IMG/VR virus record: IMGVR_UViG_2700989286_000012
Origin: a virus
Taxonomy: Duplodnaviria > Heunggongvirae > Uroviricota > Caudoviricetes
Direction: 5' to 3' (one strand)
Length of the DNA: 10,458 nucleotides
Part shown: positions 1 to 10,458 of the stretch, piece by piece
Layout of the letters: each line of letters starts with the position of its first letter
How positions within the stretch are numbered: the first letter of the stretch is position 1
The notes under the pieces: generated by a model
What the model saw: only the letters and a program-made list of their open reading frames with translations
Database searches by the model: none
Told to the model about the DNA's origin: nothing
Translations under genes and position numbers: made by a program

Positions 1-516
1 CTAAAAAATATAACCCGTTATTATCCTGAAAATATGCCATATGGTAATAATGTTCAGTATTTCCAGAGTGAAGATGGTAAGGATTTCTACGAATCCCTGC
101 CATTATTCACCAAAAAATATAAACTTTGCATAACACCTGACAGCGGCGTTATCTGCTCAATATCACAGGACGCCTCGGCGCTGTATCCTGCGGGGTTTTC
201 TGTGGTTGAGGTCGATGAACTCCCTGAAGGCACGGATATTTCAGGAAACTGGAAGTTTGATAATGGCATAATCTCCCGTATTCCGGTTAACTACGCAAGA
301 AAACTGGAAGCAATGCGCCAGTCATATCTTAATCAGGCATATGAAAAAATTAATGACTGGAGAACGGAGCTACAACTGGGCACCATCAGCGATGAAGACA
401 GAGCAGCACTTACCCAATGGATGGCATACATCAGTCAGGTGAAGAAAATGGAACTACCCGCCATTAAAACAGAAGCTGAATTTAACGCCATTAAATGGCC
501 TGAGCAGCCACAGTAA
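1..516 (+). CDS. Tail fiber assembly protein (Tfa / Mu U-like chaperone), probably 5'-partial at the window edge
   Basis: The C-terminal half (...ISDEDRAALTQWMAYISQVKKMELPAIKTEAEFNAIKWPEQPQ) has the conserved Tfa C-terminal pattern ending WPEQP. The first in-window ATG is at 34, but the frame stays open from 34 back to position 1 with no in-frame stop, and no Shine-Dalgarno precedes ATG-34, so the true start is probably upstream of the window. Stop codon TAA at 514..516. Confidence 0.75.
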   Translation, partial: LKNITRYYPENMPYGNNVQYFQSEDGKDFYESLPLFTKKYKLCITPDSGVICSISQDASALYPAGFSVVEVDELPEGTDISGNWKFDNGIISRIPVNYARKLEAMRQSYLNQAYEKINDWRTELQLGTISDEDRAALTQWMAYISQVKKMELPAIKTEAEFNAIKWPEQPQ

Positions 517-519
517 TAA

Positions 520-539
520 AGAAGGCCGGAAGGCCTTCT
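520..539. terminator. Candidate bidirectional intrinsic terminator hairpin between the convergent Tfa and tail fiber genes
   Basis: Perfect 8-bp stem AGAAGGCC (520..527) / GGCCTTCT (532..539) with a GGAA loop, 4 nt after the Tfa stop and 9 nt after the tail fiber stop. On the - strand it is followed by TTATTA, which is only moderately T-rich; there is no clean T-run on the + strand. Confidence 0.5.
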
Positions 540-547
540 GAATATCA

Positions 548-1429
548 TTATATACTTGCAGCCGTCACCCATGCTCCATTTAACAGATACTGCAACGGCC
601 GGTAATACACGCCGCCGACGTTATCTGCCGTATTCTTACCGACATCCTGTACTTTAATTCCGGTAAGAACATTGCCGCCCCCCAGATTCAGATCCCAGCT
701 TTCCCATGTTCCGGGCATATGTGCGGTCACCGACCCCAGTCTTATGGCGGTTACTGTTCCTGATGAGATAGTGATATCCTGCGTCCCGTCAAAGGGAACA
801 CCATTAATTGTGTGGGCATTTGCCAGCCTGTTCGCGGCAACGGCGGTGCCGTCCGATGGCAGGGCATTCGCCGCCCTGTTTACCGTTTCCCGTAAACCGA
901 CGTTATCGATAAAAGCCCCTTTATCCGGAATGTCTGCGCCGTTCTGCTCCCTGCGCAGGTAACGGTTATCACCTTCGCTTTTGCTGTAAACATCCAGATT
1001 ATTACGGGCGGTTCCCTTATTCTCCAGGTCGGCGAGATTCTGATCCTTCGCCAGGGCATTAACGTCACCGGGACCAAGACTGTTTTTTGTGGCAAGCGTC
1101 CCCAGACCAAGATAACCACGGGCCAGACGCTGGGCCTCCGCACCGGCATCAGCAATTTCTTTCAGGTTATTTTTCCGGGAAAAGGCATTCGCAGCGATAA
1201 TGGCTTTAATGGACAGCGTAAGCTGGTTTAACTGCGCCTTATCCGGCTGAATACTGGCTTCAGCCAGAATATTCAGCAGTTCGGCCTGGAGAATATTCAG
1301 CCAGTCCTGACCAATCCAGCTGATACCTTTTTGTCCGTCACCTTCGGTAAACCAGGTTGTGGTATTACTCTGCGCCGGTGCCAGCGCAGGCATATTCGCC
1401 ACGCCGGAATTATTATCAACATGAAACAT
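548..1429 (-). CDS. Phage tail fiber protein (Mu S-like), with a constant N-terminal part and a short variable C-terminal part
   Basis: 293-aa ORF. The ATG overlaps the upstream stop as TAATG (translational coupling). The N-terminus ([14 protein letters not shown]...[10 protein letters not shown]) looks like the conserved tail-fiber N-terminal attachment region. An invertase crossover-like site falls at codons 173..181 (FIDNVGLRE), leaving about 117 aa distal to it. Confidence 0.8.
887..912. other. Putative DNA-invertase crossover site (gix/hix-like) inside the tail fiber gene
   Basis: TTCCCGTAAACC-GA-CGTTATCGATAA: two imperfect 12-bp half-sites around a 2-bp core. It matches hixL (TTCTTGAAAACCAAGGTTTTTGATAA, recalled from memory) at 18 of 26 positions and gix even more closely as I recall it. 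Its position corresponds to the constant/variable junction of Mu-type fiber genes. Confidence 0.55.
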
Positions 1430-1989
1430 TAAATAGTCTCCTCTTCATGGCTGTTTGCATAAACGTAAATAAACGTCTGCCATGCAGGCTTATAACGGTT
1501 CAGAATACATTCCAGCGCACCGCCTTCATAAATACGCAGCGGCGTGAGAATATCATCCAGCACATTCATATTCCGGTAGCCGGTTTCACTGTTAATCGTG
1601 ACAATACTGACCCACTGCGAATCCGGTGAGGGCTGAATGTCAATCTGATAACCAAACTCCGCCGCAAACCGGATATAAAATTCACGGTTCAGCGAGGGCT
1701 TCATCCGGTATTTATTTCCGGCATAACGCTGTCGCTCCGTGAGGGTGGCTCCGGCCATATCACACTCGGGAAGCCCGAGATAACGCTCCCAGTCTTCCAG
1801 CAGCAGGCGCGACGTGTCAGGGAAACGCTCGGCAAGCAGCTGTTTACCCGTCCAGGATACACGCGCTGTCGAATGACTGAGGCCCAGACATAATGATGCC
1901 AGTACGGATGACGGACGCTTGTCCCATGCCAGCCCGTCAGGCAGTAACTGCAACAGGGCGCGCTGATGCGGGGTCAGGGTTACAGCCAT
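1429..1989 (-). CDS. Baseplate protein, DUF2313 family (Mu gp48-like)
   Basis: 186-aa ORF placed between the J-like baseplate gene and the tail fiber, as in Mu. The start ATG at 1989 overlaps the upstream gene's end by 10 nt; its stop overlaps the fiber start. Confidence 0.75.
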
Positions 1990-3062
1990 GTGATTTCTCC
2001 TACCGTCAGCAGCTCACTGTCTCCCGCCTGAACTGACGTCAGCGGACTGCGCACTTCAAAATCCTCCAGATTTTTCACCCCTGCCACCGCCCGCCAGAAA
2101 GACGACGGCAGAACCAGACCGCCGGGCCGGGATTCGTTATACAACAGGTCGGTCAGCGCCTGTTTTACGGCCGCCTGATTCTCCGGTGTTTTCGGGATGA
2201 TCCTGATGCTGAAGGGCACCGGCTTATTGGTCAGTTTAAACACGGTCACCGTCGGCCCCAGAGGCTGTCCGACAGGCTGGCCGGTCGCCGGATCATCATG
2301 ACTGCGGATATAATCCGCCACCCGCTGAACATCACCGTCACCGGGGAAAATATCCGGGTTATTATCCTGAACAAACGTTACCCCCACGCTGCCCGCCTGC
2401 GGCCATTCCGGGCGGCACCATGCCCGCGTCACGCCCGGCACTTCACGCGCCCAGCGTTCAAAATCATACTGCGTGCCGCCGGACGGTGGATTCTGCACCC
2501 GGAAAACCAGACGGGAAAGCAGCTCCGGCACGGTTTCCACATCCGCACCACCGGTGATCCCCGTTCCGGTCACCGTGGCCGTCTGGTTGATCCCCGCCTG
2601 CGGTGTGATAAATGTCAGTTTTGTCCCTGCCGGGGCATTCCCCGCACGACCGGCACTTTCGGCTTCCACACTGACATTCAGCGTACCGGCCTTACCGGTC
2701 AGGGAGGTGGTGATACGGTAAACCACGCCATCACTTCGCTGGAGAAGCACACCTTCCTTGATCCCCGCATCCGTGGTCAGCATCAGCTGAACCGGCCCGT
2801 CCCCCCGAGAGGCAGGCTTACGCATGACGCCCCAGAATGCACAGTGTTTCAGCAGTTCGGCTTCATCGGCTTCGGTCGGGATGATCTGACGCGCAATCCA
2901 GGCCAGATGCTCATGCTCCTGAGCAGATAACCCTGCCTGAGCGTAAGCAATGGCATTCAGGGTGGTTTCATTCACACCCGGCTGCGAGCCGGGCAGGCGC
3001 TGGCTGATATCCTGCTGTGTCTGCGTGATTAACTGTGCCAGCGGTAAAGGCTGATAAGGCAT
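1980..3062 (-). CDS. Baseplate J-like protein (Mu gp47-like)
   Basis: 360-aa ORF of the size and position expected for the J-family baseplate wedge. Its start at 3062 overlaps the upstream stop as TAATG. Confidence 0.8.
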   Translation of the reverse strand: MPYQPLPLAQLITQTQQDISQRLPGSQPGVNETTLNAIAYAQAGLSAQEHEHLAWIARQIIPTEADEAELLKHCAFWGVMRKPASRGDGPVQLMLTTDAGIKEGVLLQRSDGVVYRITTSLTGKAGTLNVSVEAESAGRAGNAPAGTKLTFITPQAGINQTATVTGTGITGGADVETVPELLSRLVFRVQNPPSGGTQYDFERWAREVPGVTRAWCRPEWPQAGSVGVTFVQDNNPDIFPGDGDVQRVADYIRSHDDPATGQPVGQPLGPTVTVFKLTNKPVPFSIRIIPKTPENQAAVKQALTDLLYNESRPGGLVLPSSFWRAVAGVKNLEDFEVRSPLTSVQAGDSELLTVGEITWL

Positions 3063-3499
3063 TACTCCCCCTTAAGATCAGCATAAAAAATCATGGGCCT
3101 CACTGAACCATCAGGCAGGGTTATGCGCACCGAAAGCGCCAGCCGCGCGTGTCCCACACGTTCTGCATGACAGACCACGGATGACGCCACGCCATCCTGA
3201 CTGAGCCAGCCCAGCGCCTCATCCGCGTAAGCACGGGCACGGCTTATCACCGAGGCCAGCGTTTTTTCCCGGCTGAGAAGCCACAGACGGGAGCCAATGG
3301 GGCGCGGGCGAAAACTGTCTCCCCACCATCCCCGGCGGTCGCGCGTACCGTCAGGGATTTCATCCGATGCCAGCGCCCGGCGGTCAGTAAACAGCGAAAT
3401 CAGAACGGCCGTCAGCAGACTGTCATCCGTCAGCAGGTCGGCACCGTTCAGTTGCAGCGAACCGCATCCCTGATCCCACACAATTGCAATATCAGCCAT
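3062..3499 (-). CDS. Baseplate protein, GP46 family (Mu gp46-like)
   Basis: I place the start at the ATG at 3499 (MADIAIVWDQG...), preceded by an AGGAG Shine-Dalgarno about 9 nt upstream and overlapping the gp45 stop in the ATGGCTGA arrangement. The longer ORF-track version (to 3643) would overlap gp45 in another frame and is rejected. Confidence 0.75.
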   Translation of the reverse strand: MADIAIVWDQGCGSLQLNGADLLTDDSLLTAVLISLFTDRRALASDEIPDGTRDRRGWWGDSFRPRPIGSRLWLLSREKTLASVISRARAYADEALGWLSQDGVASSVVCHAERVGHARLALSVRITLPDGSVRPMIFYADLKGE

Positions 3500-4103
3500 T
3501 CTCCGGCACTCCTGTCTTACTGCCTTCGCCGTTATCATGATGCACATGGCCGGAATACCGTATCCCTGCAATAACGGCATCCGACATTGTGAACAGTCCC
3601 TGAGATTTCCCCGTACCCTCAAGCGCGAAATTACCCTTAACATGCAGGTTCTTATCCACCGTCACATTGCCCGTAAAGGTGGCTTCCGGCGTATCCACCC
3701 GCATCCCCTCGTCGGCGTAAATCTCCAGCATTTTGCATGTCACAATAATGCGGCCATCCTTTGTTAACCGTATCCGGTGCCCCTCATGGTGATACACCCC
3801 CGTATCTCCGGCTGTGAGTCCGGTCGGGCGGCTGCGCCGGTCTTCCACCACAAGCACCACAGTCTGATCCCGCTGTCCGCCCAGACAGGCAAAAAAGGTT
3901 TCCGCACCCGGCAGGGGAACGCTGATCTGCCCGTACTGCTGGGGACGCTCCACATCATCAAAGGTTTCGCCGTCCATGCCGGTGAGCTGCACATTCTGCA
4001 TTTTCAGTTCGTCATGTGTGCCGGTCAGAACGCCCCGGCCAAACAACAGGCGAATACCGCGCGTTACCGGGGCAATCAGGCGGCTGAACACTTCATCATT
4101 CAT
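3492..4103 (-). CDS. Baseplate central spike protein (gpV / Mu gp45-like)
   Basis: The ORF track starts at a TTG at 4106; the adjacent ATG at 4103 (MNDEVF...) is the more likely start. It overlaps the P-like gene's stop by 8 nt. The C-terminus carries a His cluster (SGHVHHDNGEG) of the kind seen at metal-binding spike apices. Confidence 0.8.
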   Translation of the reverse strand: MNDEVFSRLIAPVTRGIRLLFGRGVLTGTHDELKMQNVQLTGMDGETFDDVERPQQYGQISVPLPGAETFFACLGGQRDQTVVLVVEDRRSRPTGLTAGDTGVYHHEGHRIRLTKDGRIIVTCKMLEIYADEGMRVDTPEATFTGNVTVDKNLHVKGNFALEGTGKSQGLFTMSDAVIAGIRYSGHVHHDNGEGSKTGVPENG

Positions 4104-5220
4104 CAAAGCTGATCCCCTGTTTTTTCATCTGCTGGCGAATAAAGGCATCAACATCGTCACCGGAACCACCCCGGCCCTTACTGTCCGGCTCTGCCGGAAC
4201 GATAAAGCCGTCACGCGGTGCCAGTACCAGCCGGGTGACTTCCCCGTTATGCTCATCAAGTAAAAACTCCACCTGACAGACCAGCAGTTCAGTCTGTTCT
4301 ATACCGAAACGCAGGGCTGAAACACCGGTCAGCAGATTGACATCCCATAACCGGCCATCATCCCGGAACCAGCCACGCACGGTGGCAGAAAACCGTTCTG
4401 AACGGGCAATCGCACGGCGCATTTCACGCAGGGCACGCTGCCGTGCACCGGTGATGTCTGTCTGTTGATCGGCGAGGATGATTTTCGGCCGGTAGCGGCC
4501 GATCTGCTCATCACTGATGACGCCCACAGGTGCTGCCAGACGGGCGGCGGATTCGCTGTCTCCCCGTTTGCCACCACCGCGCCCGTGTCCCCGGACACGG
4601 TATTCGCTGTATCGTCCTCGCCAGTCCGTGTTGTAATCGGCATCAAGCAGGTTATCTCCCAGCACCAGTCTGTCCGTCTGCTGGCTTCCTGCCTGGGTGA
4701 ACACCAGATCGCCGTCAGCATTACTGGTCACCAGCACCCCGCGATGCCGGGCAGCACGGGTCAGCGCATCCGCCACGGTTTCTGAGTTTTCCAGCGTAAA
4801 AGAGCTGAAGGGGCGTGCAGCCGTGTCGTCGTTAACCTGCCAGCGCACGGCTATCCCGAAGGGCGCACATAAATCTGCGGCAATCTGTGCCAGCGTCCGG
4901 TTGCGCCACTGGCTGCCGGGATGGATGGCGGCACAGTCCACCAGGTCGCCGGTTTTATCCCGACCGCTGATGCTGATCTGATGACGGGTTGCACTGATCC
5001 GCTGACTGACCTGATCCAGCCAGCCACTGATGACCGTCTGCCCGTTAATTCTGAGCGTCAGGGGCTGACCGGTCCGCAGGGCTGAGGGGATGCGCTCACC
5101 GGGCAGCATCAGCCCCAGTTCAAACGACCCGGCCAGATGCTCCAGCGAGCGACGGACGCTGACCGTCAGCCAGCCGGAAAAAATACTGCCGCCGATATAC
5201 AGTTCAATCCTGCTGCTCAC
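4096..5220 (-). CDS. Mu P-like tail/baseplate protein (late control D family)
   Basis: 374-aa ORF. The start is a GTG at 5220, preceded by a strong GGAGG Shine-Dalgarno 6-7 nt upstream, and overlaps the 3' end of the N-like gene by 17 nt. Position and size fit Mu P. Confidence 0.75.
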   Translation of the reverse strand: MSSRIELYIGGSIFSGWLTVSVRRSLEHLAGSFELGLMLPGERIPSALRTGQPLTLRINGQTVISGWLDQVSQRISATRHQISISGRDKTGDLVDCAAIHPGSQWRNRTLAQIAADLCAPFGIAVRWQVNDDTAARPFSSFTLENSETVADALTRAARHRGVLVTSNADGDLVFTQAGSQQTDRLVLGDNLLDADYNTDWRGRYSEYRVRGHGRGGGKRGDSESAARLAAPVGVISDEQIGRYRPKIILADQQTDITGARQRALREMRRAIARSERFSATVRGWFRDDGRLWDVNLLTGVSALRFGIEQTELLVCQVEFLLDEHNGEVTRLVLAPRDGFIVPAEPDSKGRGGSGDDVDAFIRQQMKKQGISFDE

Positions 5221-6562
5221 TGATCACCTCCACGCGGCGGCCACCCGGAACAAAAACCGGATCGGGGATATTGTTTCTGCGGACAAAATACTGCCAGCGG
5301 CGGCTGTTACCGGTGGCACGGTACAGCGTGACCAGTGCCGGTTCGGTGGTTCGCACCATGACCTGAAAAGCACCGGGAAGATGCACGCTCCGCGTGGTTA
5401 AATCTTCTGTCAGCGCAAGCCCTGCATCACGTAATGTAAGGGCGGTGCCGGTATGGCCCTGTGCGGACAGATCCAGCACCTGTTGTTCCATGACATCGCT
5501 CAAATCCCGGTTGATACGCTGCACATCAGCAGAACTTTCCAGCCAGGCCAGTCCGCCCGCACGGTCAGTATCCTGAACGTGCGTCGTATTCTGCCGGATG
5601 ACCTGATCCAGCAGTTTTCCGACCGTCTGCGCCTGCGACACCAGGGCTGCACTCTGCATGACGCTCCGCAGCAGACGGATATTGTTCTGTGCCGCAGGCG
5701 TCAGACCAATCAGGCGCTGTGGATCATCCTGTTCGCTGAGGGTGTAACGCAGGGAGGAAAGTGTGCGGTACAGCTGCGGCATGGCCTGCTCTGCTATGCT
5801 GTCACGGTTTGTGGTCAGGCTGCCGGACGGCGTTCCGGCTTTTCCGGTCAGAGACAGGGAAGGATCGCCGGGCAGCCCGGTCAGCACGGCAAACATTCCG
5901 GCCAGCGATTCAGCCATGCGACGGGGCGCATTAATCAGGGCGGCGGCATTGCCTTTCAGGGCAGTAAAACTGGCCGTAAAGGCACTGATATCCTGCACAA
6001 TCCCCATCCCCGAAACGGCATTCTCCAGTGCATCAATCTTATCGCTGATGGTGTCGGTCATGGCCTGTACATCATGCAGACCGTCTGAAATCACCGTCCA
6101 GCCGTCTGAAAGCGTGTTAAACAGCTGATTCATTGCTGAGCCGCTTTTCTGCTCCAGCGCAGCTGCCGTATCTTCTGCCACCGCAGGGGCGGTATCGTCA
6201 CTGGCGGGGATCACGTTGATCGTGAACTCAACCGTTCCCTGCTCGCTGGCGTTATAACGGCTTTCAAAGCTGTTTATCAGCACGTTTAACGTGCCGTAAT
6301 CCGGGTGCATCAGTTCACCGGCACCGGGTGCACGCAGCGCATCACGCAGGCGGCTTCGCTGTGTCTGAAGATCGTCTCCGGTCACCAGAACCGTGAATGT
6401 GAACTCCGGGAGTTTTGGCCCCAGATCATCCGCACCGCCGCTTTCACGCAGTGGGTATTCACGGCGCACAATGTTACGTCCGCCCCGTTCCCGCTGCTCC
6501 TGATAAACCAGGAACGGTACGCCACGAAAGGAGCCACGCCCCGGCGTGTCAGTAGAGGCCAT
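5204..6562 (-). CDS. Mu N-like DNA circulation protein
   Basis: 452-aa ORF immediately downstream of the tape-measure gene, as Mu N is. The start ATG at 6562 has a GGAGG Shine-Dalgarno 5 nt upstream and overlaps the tape-measure 3' end by 14 nt. Confidence 0.8.
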   Translation of the reverse strand: MASTDTPGRGSFRGVPFLVYQEQRERGGRNIVRREYPLRESGGADDLGPKLPEFTFTVLVTGDDLQTQRSRLRDALRAPGAGELMHPDYGTLNVLINSFESRYNASEQGTVEFTINVIPASDDTAPAVAEDTAAALEQKSGSAMNQLFNTLSDGWTVISDGLHDVQAMTDTISDKIDALENAVSGMGIVQDISAFTASFTALKGNAAALINAPRRMAESLAGMFAVLTGLPGDPSLSLTGKAGTPSGSLTTNRDSIAEQAMPQLYRTLSSLRYTLSEQDDPQRLIGLTPAAQNNIRLLRSVMQSAALVSQAQTVGKLLDQVIRQNTTHVQDTDRAGGLAWLESSADVQRINRDLSDVMEQQVLDLSAQGHTGTALTLRDAGLALTEDLTTRSVHLPGAFQVMVRTTEPALVTLYRATGNSRRWQYFVRRNNIPDPVFVPGGRRVEVISEQQD

Positions 6563-8327
6563 AGTTCCCTCCGTTCCAGACGTTCACATCCAGGCCATGC
6601 TGTGCGGTATCATCCACATCAATACTGCGCGCCCGCCAGCCTTCAGGGGCCACAAGCTCCACCCGTGCGGCGGTTTTCGCGGTGGCCTGTCCGCCGTTTT
6701 CGTCACTGCCGCCACGCAGTTTCTGCCAGGCCTGCGTCAGCCAGCCCCCCAGATAATCACCGAGATAGCTGCCCACCGTGGAACCAATGGCAACCCCGAC
6801 CGGACCAGCAGCCGCCCCCAGCGCGCCACCGGCGATACTTCCGGCAAGGGAACCCACGGCACCGGCTTTATCGGCTGCACTGGCGCTGCTGTCCAGCAGT
6901 ACAGGAGCCGCCATGGCACCGGCCCACAGGGCACCACCACCCAGCCGACCGGCACCACGGAACAGCCCGGCAAAACGCCCCAGCCCCATGCGGTTTCCGG
7001 CCGCCGTTAGCAGACCACCGGCACGGCTCATCATACGACCGAAGAAGCCCTGTTTACCGGCACTCTCCGCCAGTTGCTCACCGGCAGTCACGACGGTCGT
7101 GACACCCCGTCCACGTCCGGGGCCGCGTTTTTTACGGCCGCGCACGGTTTTGCCGTCACCGCTGACCACCACATCCCCGCCACCTGAGGCCAGGCCACCC
7201 GCAGGCCAGTTGGTGACCAGCACGGGCTGAACGGCAGCCGGATTTACCCCGGTAAGGAAATTCAGGAACCGGCCAGCGCGTCCGGGCTGCGTTCCCGGTA
7301 CAGTGGTCTGCGGTTTGCGGAAGGGCGACGTCAGCACGGAGGTCATCGCCATGCCATAGCGTAAGGGGGTTGCGCCGAGACGTAATGCTCCCGTCCCCGC
7401 AAACCTGAGCACCTTCAGCGCACGGGAGGCGAGATACATATACATCAGGTACTTTGCGGCGGTCTGCGCACCCTGACCAATGCGATCCAGCGCATCGCCA
7501 TAACCGGCGTCGCGCAGTGCCTGAAGCGTTTCCCTGACTTTCTGAATGACCCGGTAAAAGCCGGTCGCAGCGTCTCTGGCATACTCAAATCCCTGATTCA
7601 GGGCTGAGGCCGTCTGTGTGGCCAGCTTATCCTGTAAGCCGCTTTTCTGTGCCGCATCAGCATAATCCAGAAAGCCTTTCAGGCTCTTTTTCAGGCTGTC
7701 AAACGGTCCCTTTGCCATCACCTCGCGGGCAAATCCGTCCCAGACATCGCCCATCATGGACGTCATTCCCGTCCAGGAATTCATGGCGTTTTTCTGGGCA
7801 CCTTTTGCCTGTTCGGCCATCACCTGAAATAACAGGCGAATGCTGTCCGGTCCCAGTTTTCCTTTCTCGCCTTTCTCACGGATGATCTTCTGGTTTACAC
7901 CCAGCTTATCGGCCAGCAACTGGTAAACGTTAATCCCGTATCCGGTCAGAATATTGGCGTCCGCTGCCTGGATACTCTGGCGGGCAAACATCTGTTTGAG
8001 TTGCAGGGACGCACCCTGTGCATCTGACAGTGACCAGCCGTGATAGCCGCCCTGATCCTGAAGCATGGTAATAAAGCGACGGGCTTCCCTGTCACTCATA
8101 CCGAACCCGCGACTGGAGGCGTATTCCTGCATAACCCCCGCCAGCCCCCAGGTGGTGTCTTTGGCGTTCTGTACCGCCCAGGCTTTCACTGCTTCCGTTT
8201 TTGCCGTATCGCCATGATTAATGGCGTTGAGACGCAGAATATAGTTCTCCATCTCTGCGGCCGGGCGGATAAAGGCTTTATTAAACCCGTAGACCGCAGC
8301 CCCTCCCGCCAGCATCCCGTAAAGGTT
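6549..8327 (-). pseudogene. Tail tape-measure protein, 5'-truncated remnant
   Basis: Long ORF with a Gly/Ala-rich C-terminal region (GGALGAAAGPVGVAIGSTVGSYLGDYLGG) and an RGRKKRGPGRGRG stretch typical of tape-measure proteins. The frame is open up to 8387, but sequence above about 8330 is transposase coding DNA read in another frame. Neither the GTG at 8387 nor the ATG at 8315 has a recognisable Shine-Dalgarno. How much of the N-terminus is missing is unknown. Confidence 0.65.
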
Positions 8328-9456
8328 GCTTATCCGAGTAATACAGAAACGGTTTGCCGTGATGGCGAATGCCGTGCTGTATGGCACCGGCTACGGCGAA
8401 AACATTTTCAGCCAGGTCAAGGCTCCAGCCCACCACAAAGCGCGTGCCACCGTCGATAACAAAGGTCACTTCCGGTGCAAATGGCCGACCGTGAACCGGG
8501 TGTGCGCATTTCAGCTTCATGCCGTGACCGTCACCAATCCAGACATAATTCACCGGCATTTTTGACCAGTCGCGGCGCGTGAATCCCTCAAGCTGGCGGT
8601 ATTCACTGCCGGTCACCCGGCCTTTTTGTTTCACCACTTCCGGCAGTTTCTTCATTGCGCGGCGAATGGTGTCATAAGACGGCATGATATCGAGCATATA
8701 AGGCTCATCAGCGTGCCGGTGCTGCCATTCAGCGACAAAATCCTCGTAAGCCTCGGTCATTGGTCGGCCGTTTGACTGGCGATACTGCGCCAGAAATTCG
8801 GGCAGCCAGTTAATATCTTCGGCTTTTATTTCCTGGCGCTTACCCGGTGCCAGTAAAAGCAGGCGTTCAGCGGCGTTCTGCGCCTTGTTAAAGGCCGCAA
8901 TCCAGCGTTTCAGCGTGATTTCACTTAACGCGCGGCTGTTTCCCTTTTTGGCGTTCGCCGTCTCAACCATTGCCACAATGCGCTCGTCCAGCTGCGAACG
9001 TGCCAGGTTGTCAACGATAAACCGGATAGCCTTCGCACAGCTGAAACCAGGTTGTTGCGCGACTTTCAGAACTTCGCTGACGATCGCGATTCGTGCATCA
9101 GCCACCTGGCGCTGGTTTTCAGTCAGGGCATTAAGGCGTTCGACCATCAGTTGTGGTGATCCGCGATATGCCTCCACCGCATCAACCACGGCAGGCGAGC
9201 GTCTGGCCTTTGTCACCACTGGAGCCGGTGATTCATCGACTTTTTGAGTCATCAGTTGCAGGGCGTAGCGTTCACGTAATGCCTGCTGCGTCACTTCAGG
9301 TAAACAGTCGATGCTGTATTCAGTTGCTTTAGAGCCTGAGCGACGACGGGAACAACAGCTTTTCCCTTGTACGTAACGTTGTAATGCCTGGCGAATACCT
9401 TTTGTTGTAGCAGGCATTCCGGGCGCGCCAATCAGTTCTTTTGCAATGACATACAT
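8281..9456 (-). pseudogene. Mu A-type DDE transposase, N-terminal 391 codons only
   Basis: The N-terminus (MYVIAKELIGAPGMPATTKGI...SGSKATEYSIDCLPEVTQQAL) parallels the MuA enhancer-binding domain as I recall it. WIGDGHG aligns with the MuA first catalytic Asp region (INGDGY) and FLYYSD with the second Asp region. The frame then runs 14 unrelated codons to a stop at 8281, so the catalytic Glu and the C-terminal domain are missing. The start ATG at 9456 sits 1 nt after the ner stop. Confidence 0.8.
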
Positions 9457-9457
9457 A

Positions 9458-9706
9458 TCATGACGCCTTTCTCATATAGCTCTTAACCTGGTATCGACTG
9501 GGCCAGATTTCTTCAGGCGATACCCCAAGAGCATCAGCAATTATTTGCTGATACGGTCGGCAAGGAGTACGTAATACGCTTTTCAGCGAATCCCTGCTGT
9601 AACCAGCCTTTAAAGATAAAGAGCGCAGTGATAAGCCAGCCATGTGTAAGCGCGCCTTGATGATTTCAGGCGGCCAATCGTGATCTGAAACTTCTCTTCT
9701 ACTCAT
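9458..9706 (-). CDS. ner: Ner-like DNA-binding protein (Ner/Nlp family)
   Basis: 82-aa ORF with the DW...GLSLRSLS...QQIIADALGVSPEEIWPSRYQ pattern, which closely resembles Mu Ner and E. coli Nlp as recalled. It lies immediately upstream of the transposase gene and divergent from the repressor. A GAGGA Shine-Dalgarno precedes the ATG at 9706. Confidence 0.85.
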   Translation of the reverse strand: MSRREVSDHDWPPEIIKARLHMAGLSLRSLSLKAGYSRDSLKSVLRTPCRPYQQIIADALGVSPEEIWPSRYQVKSYMRKAS

Positions 9707-9726
9707 ACTTCCTCTATTCTAAAAAG

Positions 9727-9765
9727 TTACCCGCGCGGATATTCGTGCGGATATCTGTACGGGTA
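9727..9765. promoter_or_regulatory. Candidate operator cluster in the ner/repressor intergenic region
   Basis: Inverted repeat TTACCCG (9727..9733) / CGGGTAA (9759..9765) enclosing two direct copies of GCGGATAT (9736..9743 and 9748..9755) at a 12-bp period. It lies just downstream of the candidate early promoter -10 element. Confidence 0.4.
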
Positions 9766-9766
9766 A

Positions 9767-9796
9767 ATAATAGAACAAACAAAAGAACCAAATCAA
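9767..9796 (-). promoter_or_regulatory. Candidate early promoter (Pe-like) driving ner and the transposase
   Basis: On the - strand, -35 TTGATT (9791..9796), an 18-nt spacer and -10 TATTAT (9767..9772), with a predicted start near 9760. Identified by eye only. Confidence 0.3.
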
Positions 9797-9873
9797 GGTA
9801 TTTTGTTCTTTTTATTCTTTGCGGTGTTTTTGTTATTAATATCAATAAGATAAATAAAAAGGAACCTGAGAGC

Positions 9874-10458
9874 ATGAACATGAAAAACAGTTCTTTTCTC
9901 GACGAAGGAAAAGAACCAGTGATCGAACGGATTTTTCGTCTTGCAGAGCGTTACAAATCGAGAAGTGAGGCGGCTAGAGCATGGGGAATAAACGTTCAGA
10001 CATTGCAGAACTACTACAAAAGGAGAAACAATCAGCCGCCACCACAACCAAGAAAGCACCATCTCCAGAACATTGCAGAAAGAGAACATGTATCTATGGA
10101 GTGGCTGGTCAATGGTTATTGTGATGAGCCAAGCATGAAAAAAGAACCAATTGAACAAACAAAAAGAACAAAAAAACAAAGAATTGATGATAGTGATTCC
10201 ATCATCATGAGGGCGTGGGACTCGCTAACTTCATCTGAACAAGAGATTTTGTCCAACTTATTGATCAGAAAAGGGGCCGAACTACTAACCGTTTTGCTTG
10301 ATACAGATATTCAAAAACTGCACTCATTGAGCGGAGTCAAAAGAGCACTAGCATTGAGTCTACAAGAGTTACCCGATGATACTGTAAGAGAGATTTATGA
10401 AGAATGTGAAGCTAAGGTTAATCATTTAAATGTAACCCAGAAAAAGGCTGGTGCGTAA
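9874..10458 (+). CDS. Putative prophage repressor, positional equivalent of Mu c (HTH DNA-binding protein)
   Basis: Transcribed divergently from ner across an AT-rich control region, as Mu c is. Likely start is ATG 9874 (MNMKNSS...) with AAGGA about 10 nt upstream; ATG 9880 is an alternative. The N-terminal segment SRSEAARAWGINVQTLQNYYKRR looks like a helix-turn-helix. The upstream in-frame extension to 9745 runs through the operator region and is rejected. The family is uncertain; it does not obviously resemble Mu c. Confidence 0.65.
   Translation: MNMKNSSFLDEGKEPVIERIFRLAERYKSRSEAARAWGINVQTLQNYYKRRNNQPPPQPRKHHLQNIAEREHVSMEWLVNGYCDEPSMKKEPIEQTKRTKKQRIDDSDSIIMRAWDSLTSSEQEILSNLLIRKGAELLTVLLDTDIQKLHSLSGVKRALALSLQELPDDTVREIYEECEAKVNHLNVTQKKAGA

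Follow-up and report, generated by a model that had tools for sequence, protein, structure and literature searches.

The stretch of viral DNA considered here (10,458 nucleotides, IMG/VR record IMGVR_UViG_2700989286_000012; 'the window' below) carries a 26-bp sequence within a tail fiber gene, and that sequence raises the question of whether the distal part of the fiber is exchanged by site-specific DNA inversion, or whether the sequence is nothing other than a conserved piece of fiber coding DNA. The original prediction, which had been drawn from the letters of the window, proposed that the sequence was a crossover site of the gix/hix type, that it marked the junction between a constant and a variable part of the fiber, and that a partner site and an invertase gene would lie to the left of position 1. 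Comparison of the window with related genomes leads us to regard it as very probable that the locus is a Gin/gix-type inversion switch in a Mu-like transposable Escherichia coli prophage, with a partner site approximately 0.4 kb to the left and an invertase gene beyond it.

The crossover site and the fiber gene that contains it

The 26-mer TTCCCGTAAACC-GA-CGTTATCGATAA occurs once in the window, at positions 887 to 912, and is located within a minus-strand open reading frame of 293 codons (548 to 1429), where it spans codons 173 to 181 (FIDNVGLRE). Read in the sense of the fiber gene it is TTATCGATAACG-TC-GGTTTACGGGAA, that is, two half-sites flanking a core dinucleotide at 899-900; its position, structure and codons are thereby exactly those originally described. 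A loose two-half-site consensus (up to three mismatches) was not significant alone, with 0.34 matches expected per window and at least one match in 56 of 200 shuffles, and for that reason the significance of the site was judged instead by its distance to the gix sites of Mu. Measured in this way, the site is identical to Mu gixL (TTATCCAAAACC-TC-GGTTTACAGGAA) at 22 of 26 positions, with four mismatches and the same TC/GA core, and 1000 shuffles of the window yielded no sequence within four mismatches of either Mu gix site. The site also falls on the same motif as the boundary of the Mu G segment (the Mu version is FIQNLGLQETVN), at a homologous codon of a Mu S-like fiber (about codon 170 in Mu). 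The proposed gix/hix-like identity was upheld by these comparisons, and the sequence at 887-912 (minus strand) is a genuine crossover site of a phage-Mu-type (Gin/gix-type) inversion system that swaps the fiber tip; it is the fiber-proximal site, equivalent to Mu gixL, and its crossover was mapped by genome comparison as described below.

The fiber gene itself, which stands in the window in what is termed here the 'A' orientation, is a homologue of Mu S. Its constant N-terminal part (Sc, codons 1-172; 913 to 1429, minus strand) lies outside the invertible segment and is 47% identical to Mu S residues 1-191, and the first 191 residues of the fiber can be aligned with 5yvq and 8ju3, the solved structures of Mu S and S' (E about 1e-46). 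The variable tip A (548 to 886, minus strand) lies within the segment, is followed by no tail fiber assembly gene on its own strand, and displays a dN/dS of 0.09-0.15 between diverged alleles. Such an assembly gene (tfa, Caudo_TAP) is instead found on the plus strand at 1 to 516, its first two codons falling outside the window, and converges on the fiber gene. Between the two convergent genes is a GC-rich hairpin (520 to 539, minus strand). Read in the fiber sense, but not in the other, it leads into a T-rich tract, and in that direction only it looks like the terminator of the A-state transcript. With the T-rich tract on one side only of this hairpin, termination downstream of the segment may vary with orientation.

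The partner site, the invertase and the segment between

Positions 1-3000 of the window are 99.9% identical to several complete genomes, and its first 5 kb differ from strain HH35 at only two positions, which allowed the left flank to be read in that strain (L001; window position p equals L001 position p + 9000). Proceeding leftward, HH35 contains tfa, a 124-codon fiber frame, a 190-aa recombinase, a SASA/DUF6645 protein, DUF1378 and DUF826 proteins, com and mom. A partner site, TTCCTGAAAACC-TC-GGTTTACGGGAA, is present at L001 8570-8595, or 406-431 bp to the left of window position 1. It is inverted with respect to its counterpart in the window, with which it shares the core dinucleotide (TC/GA) and the whole inner half-site (GGTTTACGGGAA), and it matches Mu gixR at 21 of 26 positions; an inverted copy is found about 0.4 kb left of window position 1 in every close relative, as had been anticipated.

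The predicted invertase was likewise located in the close relatives. Its gene extends from 497 to 1069 bp left of window position 1, with a start codon 65 bp from the partner site in HH35, and encodes a Gin-like serine invertase of 190 residues with Resolvase (E 1.6e-51) and HTH_7 domains. The protein has 74% identity to Mu Gin, gives an E-value of 2.5e-88 against the Gin crystal structure (4m6f), and conserves the Ser9 catalytic motif (RVSTNDQ). Fis-like 15-mers are present within the gene (a full-consensus one at nucleotide 78 and a weaker one at 132), at the same positions as in Mu gin, a conservation that is inseparable from coding constraint; they are at most candidates for an enhancer.

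The same layout of partner site and invertase is found in all 10 contigs that encode the exact window fiber protein, and both the partner site and an intact invertase are present in all 18 complete genomes that match an invertase-to-fiber query end to end (98-100% covered, 98.7-100% identity). The pair of sites is further conserved in relatives at 83-92% identity (L007, L008, L010), in which the dyad structure and identical cores are kept. The whole window was found in no complete E. coli genome, and on the pattern of its relatives the partner site and invertase are predicted to be present in the genome from which it derives.

In these close relatives, the segment between the two sites encodes an alternative fiber C-terminus together with tfa, bearing out the proposed junction between constant and variable fiber. 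The constant part, codons 1-177, is fused in frame either to tip A (116 aa past the core) or to tip B (119 aa), such that the A state produces a fiber of 293 residues and the B state one of 296. The two fibers, both intact and with residues 1-177 in common, are annotated in different genomes, and tips A and B are intact in all relatives. Expression of tfa in the sense direction would occur only after inversion, along with tip B. Tip A shares with the silent tip B an inverted-repeat arm (759 to 907; 822-907 at 93% and 759-808 at 84%), and this arm reflects the first 45 or so codons, which are common to the two tips. For that reason the inverted repeats reach approximately 136 bp into the segment, as one block of 86 nt (93%) and another of 50 nt (84%), and they contain a stretch of 32 bp without any difference.

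Additional differences among relatives were noted in this flank. In the mouse isolates M3 (L009 3218-4440), M18 and M1, a deletion has removed the invertase and tip B, and only one crossover site is left; the fiber is locked in state A, and the antisense tfa is intact. The cargo between the invertase and com-mom in HH35 (L001 5175-7846) consists of a 684-aa SASA (sialate O-acetylesterase-type) + DUF6645 protein, DUF1378 and DUF826; the esterase gene of this region is truncated in the O157-type copy (L007). In another relative (L012 15716-16922), the place of Mom after a Com-like gene is taken by a 350-aa protein of the DNA_methylase family (PF00145), which suggests that the DNA-modification module has been swapped there.

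Inversion of the segment and competing explanations

Both orientations of the segment are present in public genomes. In FORC_043 and NCCP 13983 the segment is flipped, which places tfa downstream of the gene for the 296-aa fiber and in the same orientation. The most informative pair consists of FORC_069 (state A, as in the window) and NCCP 13983 (state B), in which the prophage occupies the same host site, within a fimbrial usher gene, and which are identical over 20,498 bp apart from a 1,319-bp inversion. Inversion of the FORC_069 sequence in silico at both core dinucleotides reproduced that of NCCP 13983 with no mismatches. An assumed crossover placed 1 bp further out introduced mismatches, as did one displaced inward by 20 bp or more, and the exchange must therefore have fallen within 20 bp whose outer limit is exactly the core dinucleotide. 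At a coverage of at least 80%, the A-state query is matched by 26 records among complete genomes and the B-state query by six places. These observations, with the breakpoint at the core dinucleotide, agree with the proposal of a host-range switching segment. Because otherwise identical 20.5-kb loci differ by an inversion that begins at the core, the switch is, on this comparison of genomes, active in this prophage family. Three E. coli strains (DLI.5a, TOE17 and AST46) each carry two related Mu-like prophages whose fiber segments are in opposite orientations.

The switch, as read from the window and its relatives, comprises four parts: the constant fiber region Sc (913-1429); an invertible segment of 1.32 kb, with tip A on one strand and tip B plus tfa on the other; the second crossover site; and the gene for the 190-aa serine invertase. 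The invertase would bind and pair both 26-bp sites, cut at their identical 2-bp cores (TC/GA) and rotate the strands, and the resulting flip of the segment would fuse Sc in frame either to tip A, as in the window, or to tip B followed by tfa. The receptor-binding end of the fiber, and with it the host range, would thus be altered. Catalysis by the invertase, a requirement for Fis and an enhancer, and a difference in host range between tips A and B are all suggested by analogy to Mu Gin.

The genome around the switch bears on whether it still matters where it was found. The window represents the tail module of a Mu-like E. coli prophage, and its right-hand part (8281-10458) corresponds to the left end of a Mu-type genome, with a repressor-like open reading frame, a gene for a Ner-like HTH_35 protein, and the beginning of a gene for a MuA-type transposase (HTH_Tnp_Mu_1; N-terminal 391 residues). 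The features of a Mu-like transposable phage were all found in the window and its relatives: a repressor, ner and a MuA-type transposase at one end, com-mom at the other, and varied insertion sites. Prophages with an identical fiber (L011-L020) adjoin different host genes, including those for a PapC-type usher, LysR, ETF and fumC/Ter, among others; such varied host flanks beyond mom appear as expected for Mu-style transposition, rather than for site-specific integration.

The intact relative AF39 (L021) contains a full gene set, in which the transposase-end genes are separated from the tape-measure gene by 22,792 bp. In the window, the transposase end is joined at 8330-8336 to a tape-measure gene that lacks its 5' part, and the joint carries 7 bp of microhomology (TTATCCG). 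An artefact of window cutting at 8336 was considered and rejected, since the same junction is contained in an independent IMG/VR record, contig UViG_2671180828_000011, that is 100% identical to window 766 to 9812. Relative to AF39, the early, lysis, head, sheath and tube genes (22.8 kb) are lost, and the prophage of the window is, as judged from its gene content, defective. With head, sheath, tube and other genes lost, the fiber switch cannot matter for virions made by the window copy alone. In AF39, RefSeq annotates a 'tRNA-OTHER' at L021 23517-23596, flanked by the virion morphogenesis and minor head genes but encoded on the other strand; this region is deleted in the window copy.

Three other explanations of the locus can be weighed against a Gin/gix-type switch. 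The site is coding, its motif is conserved in both Mu S and S', and the loose half-site consensus is by itself statistically non-significant, all of which would be in keeping with a match that reflects merely a stretch of fiber coding sequence shared with Mu S, and no recombination; that explanation is contradicted by the 20.5-kb identical loci that differ only by an inversion with a crossover starting at the core, and an inverted partner with the same core adjoins a Gin-like gene, so that we regard it as almost certainly wrong. A further possibility is that the inversions were made not by the invertase, but by RecA-dependent homologous recombination between the inverted repeats, for which the two blocks of homology in the arms, with their 32-bp identical stretch, would be enough to allow rare exchange. 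The exchange, however, took place within the outermost 20 bp of the repeat, its outer bound coincides exactly with the core dinucleotide, and not one arm polymorphism was swapped; the location of the exchange at the core, and not in the longer identical stretch deeper in the repeat, favours the invertase over general homologous recombination. The persistence of gix-like dyads with identical cores across the relatives at 83-92% identity, next to an intact Gin homologue, argues in the same direction, and recombination between the repeats is in our estimation highly improbable as the source of the inversions.

The explanation to which we give somewhat more weight, while still considering it unlikely, concerns only the window's own genome, in which the switch could be a frozen relic, either through loss of the partner site or invertase or through the irrelevance of its state in a deletion derivative. 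The absence of 22,792 bp between the transposase and tape-measure genes of the window prophage, and the loss of invertase and tip B in the related M3, M18 and M1 lineage, both point that way. Against it stand the retention of the partner site and an intact invertase in 10 of 10 exact-fiber contigs and 18 of 18 end-to-end complete genomes, and the near identity of the first 5 kb of the window to HH35 (two differing positions). The switch in the window's genome can probably still flip.

One assembly gene for two tips, and relation to known inversion systems

The paired assembly genes that characterize the Mu G segment (S-U and S'-U') were not found at this locus, where the segment holds a single tfa, linked to tip B, and where tip A is followed by the hairpin and a convergent, antisense tfa. 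Relatives at 83-92% identity keep this one-tfa layout. The prophage group has no fewer than five tip alleles, and the tfa-less slot is always occupied by an A- or C-type tip with a common motif, ...VQDxGKxxADNxGGVYYRPxQ.... The closest homologues of these tips belong to P2-like, P1-like and SfMu phages, where a tfa in the same orientation follows each tip within 0-2 nt. Tips A and C are under strong purifying selection (dN/dS 0.06-0.15 at dS 0.3-2), for which reason the tfa-less tips are no relics, and the idea that tip A has been decaying since its tfa was lost was rejected. A scan for sigma-70-type promoters, a class that excludes the late promoters of Mu type, found none on the relevant strand able to drive tfa in the A orientation. 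Fiber A may fold without Tfa, with Tfa supplied in trans, or with Tfa expressed from a promoter missed by that scan. One tentative interpretation, which we hold to be possible but to have less than even chances, is that of a Mu-type G segment that is asymmetric and has one chaperone, in which the A and C tips, although homologous to the chaperone-dependent tips of Mu S', P1 and P2, are independent of Tfa or borrow it from other resident prophages.

The resemblance to the G segment and Gin of Mu is otherwise close, and includes the same gene order (baseplate, S, invertible segment, gin, com, mom). The Mu segment measures 3 kb versus 1.32 kb here, its variable tips are approximately 330 aa in length as compared to the 116-119 aa of tips A and B, and it contains both U and U' where this segment has one tfa; unlike in Mu, moreover, the inverted repeats reach about 136 bp into the segment, and extra cargo is inserted between gin and com. 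The invertases of the P1 C segment (Cin/cix), the e14 P segment (Pin) and P2-like phages belong to the same Din family, are about 74-78% identical to the enzyme described here, and also flip fiber C-termini. In P1-like phages and SfMu, each of the alternative tips is directly followed by a co-oriented tfa of its own, as is the homologous tip in P2-like phages, the backbones of these phages being different. The Hin/hix system of Salmonella involves the same recombinase family and a 26-bp site with a 2-bp core, and the helix-turn-helix domain of the invertase here matches Hin structures; what Hin inverts, though, is a promoter (in flagellar phase variation) rather than a coding segment, and no phage fiber is involved.

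Programmed inversions in the fiber genes of Mu-like phages have been catalogued systematically (PMC9881135). Within E. coli, the Mu-like prophage Sp18 of the O157:H7 strain Sakai was reported to be intact and packaged, and to possess an invertible host-specificity region with genes that differ from those of Mu (Asadulghani et al., PMC2669165). Prophages of O157:H7 and other STEC strains match the tail and inversion module of the window at about 84-88% identity, with the same single-tfa layout, and we infer that the O157:H7 matches correspond to Sp18. In the O157-type copy (L007, strain 2014C-3011) the tip without a tfa is a different one, of type C; the window copy has the 22.8-kb deletion. 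The inversion switch is thus already known in kind, given the region reported for Sp18 and the membership of that prophage in what appears to be the same group, and the one-tfa asymmetry is the sole aspect of the locus for which no discussion was found in the literature.

Recognition of the switch has consequences for how this prophage family is annotated and interpreted. RefSeq lists the invertase only as a 'recombinase family protein', takes the silent tip for a pseudogene ('missing N-terminus') and gives the fiber as a 'hypothetical protein', and all three labels are corrected once the switch is recognized; the silent tip is a functional alternative cassette, comparable to an exon, and not a decayed gene. 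A gix-type call made from sequence only was in this case verified, including the partner site and invertase that it placed outside of the window. That five or more tip alleles are shuffled through a single conserved crossover site is relevant to the prediction of host range for phages of E. coli and STEC. Finally, the asymmetry in assembly genes poses a small and testable question about the dependence of these fibers on Tfa: if the one-chaperone interpretation were true, inversion would toggle co-expression of the chaperone in addition to receptor specificity.
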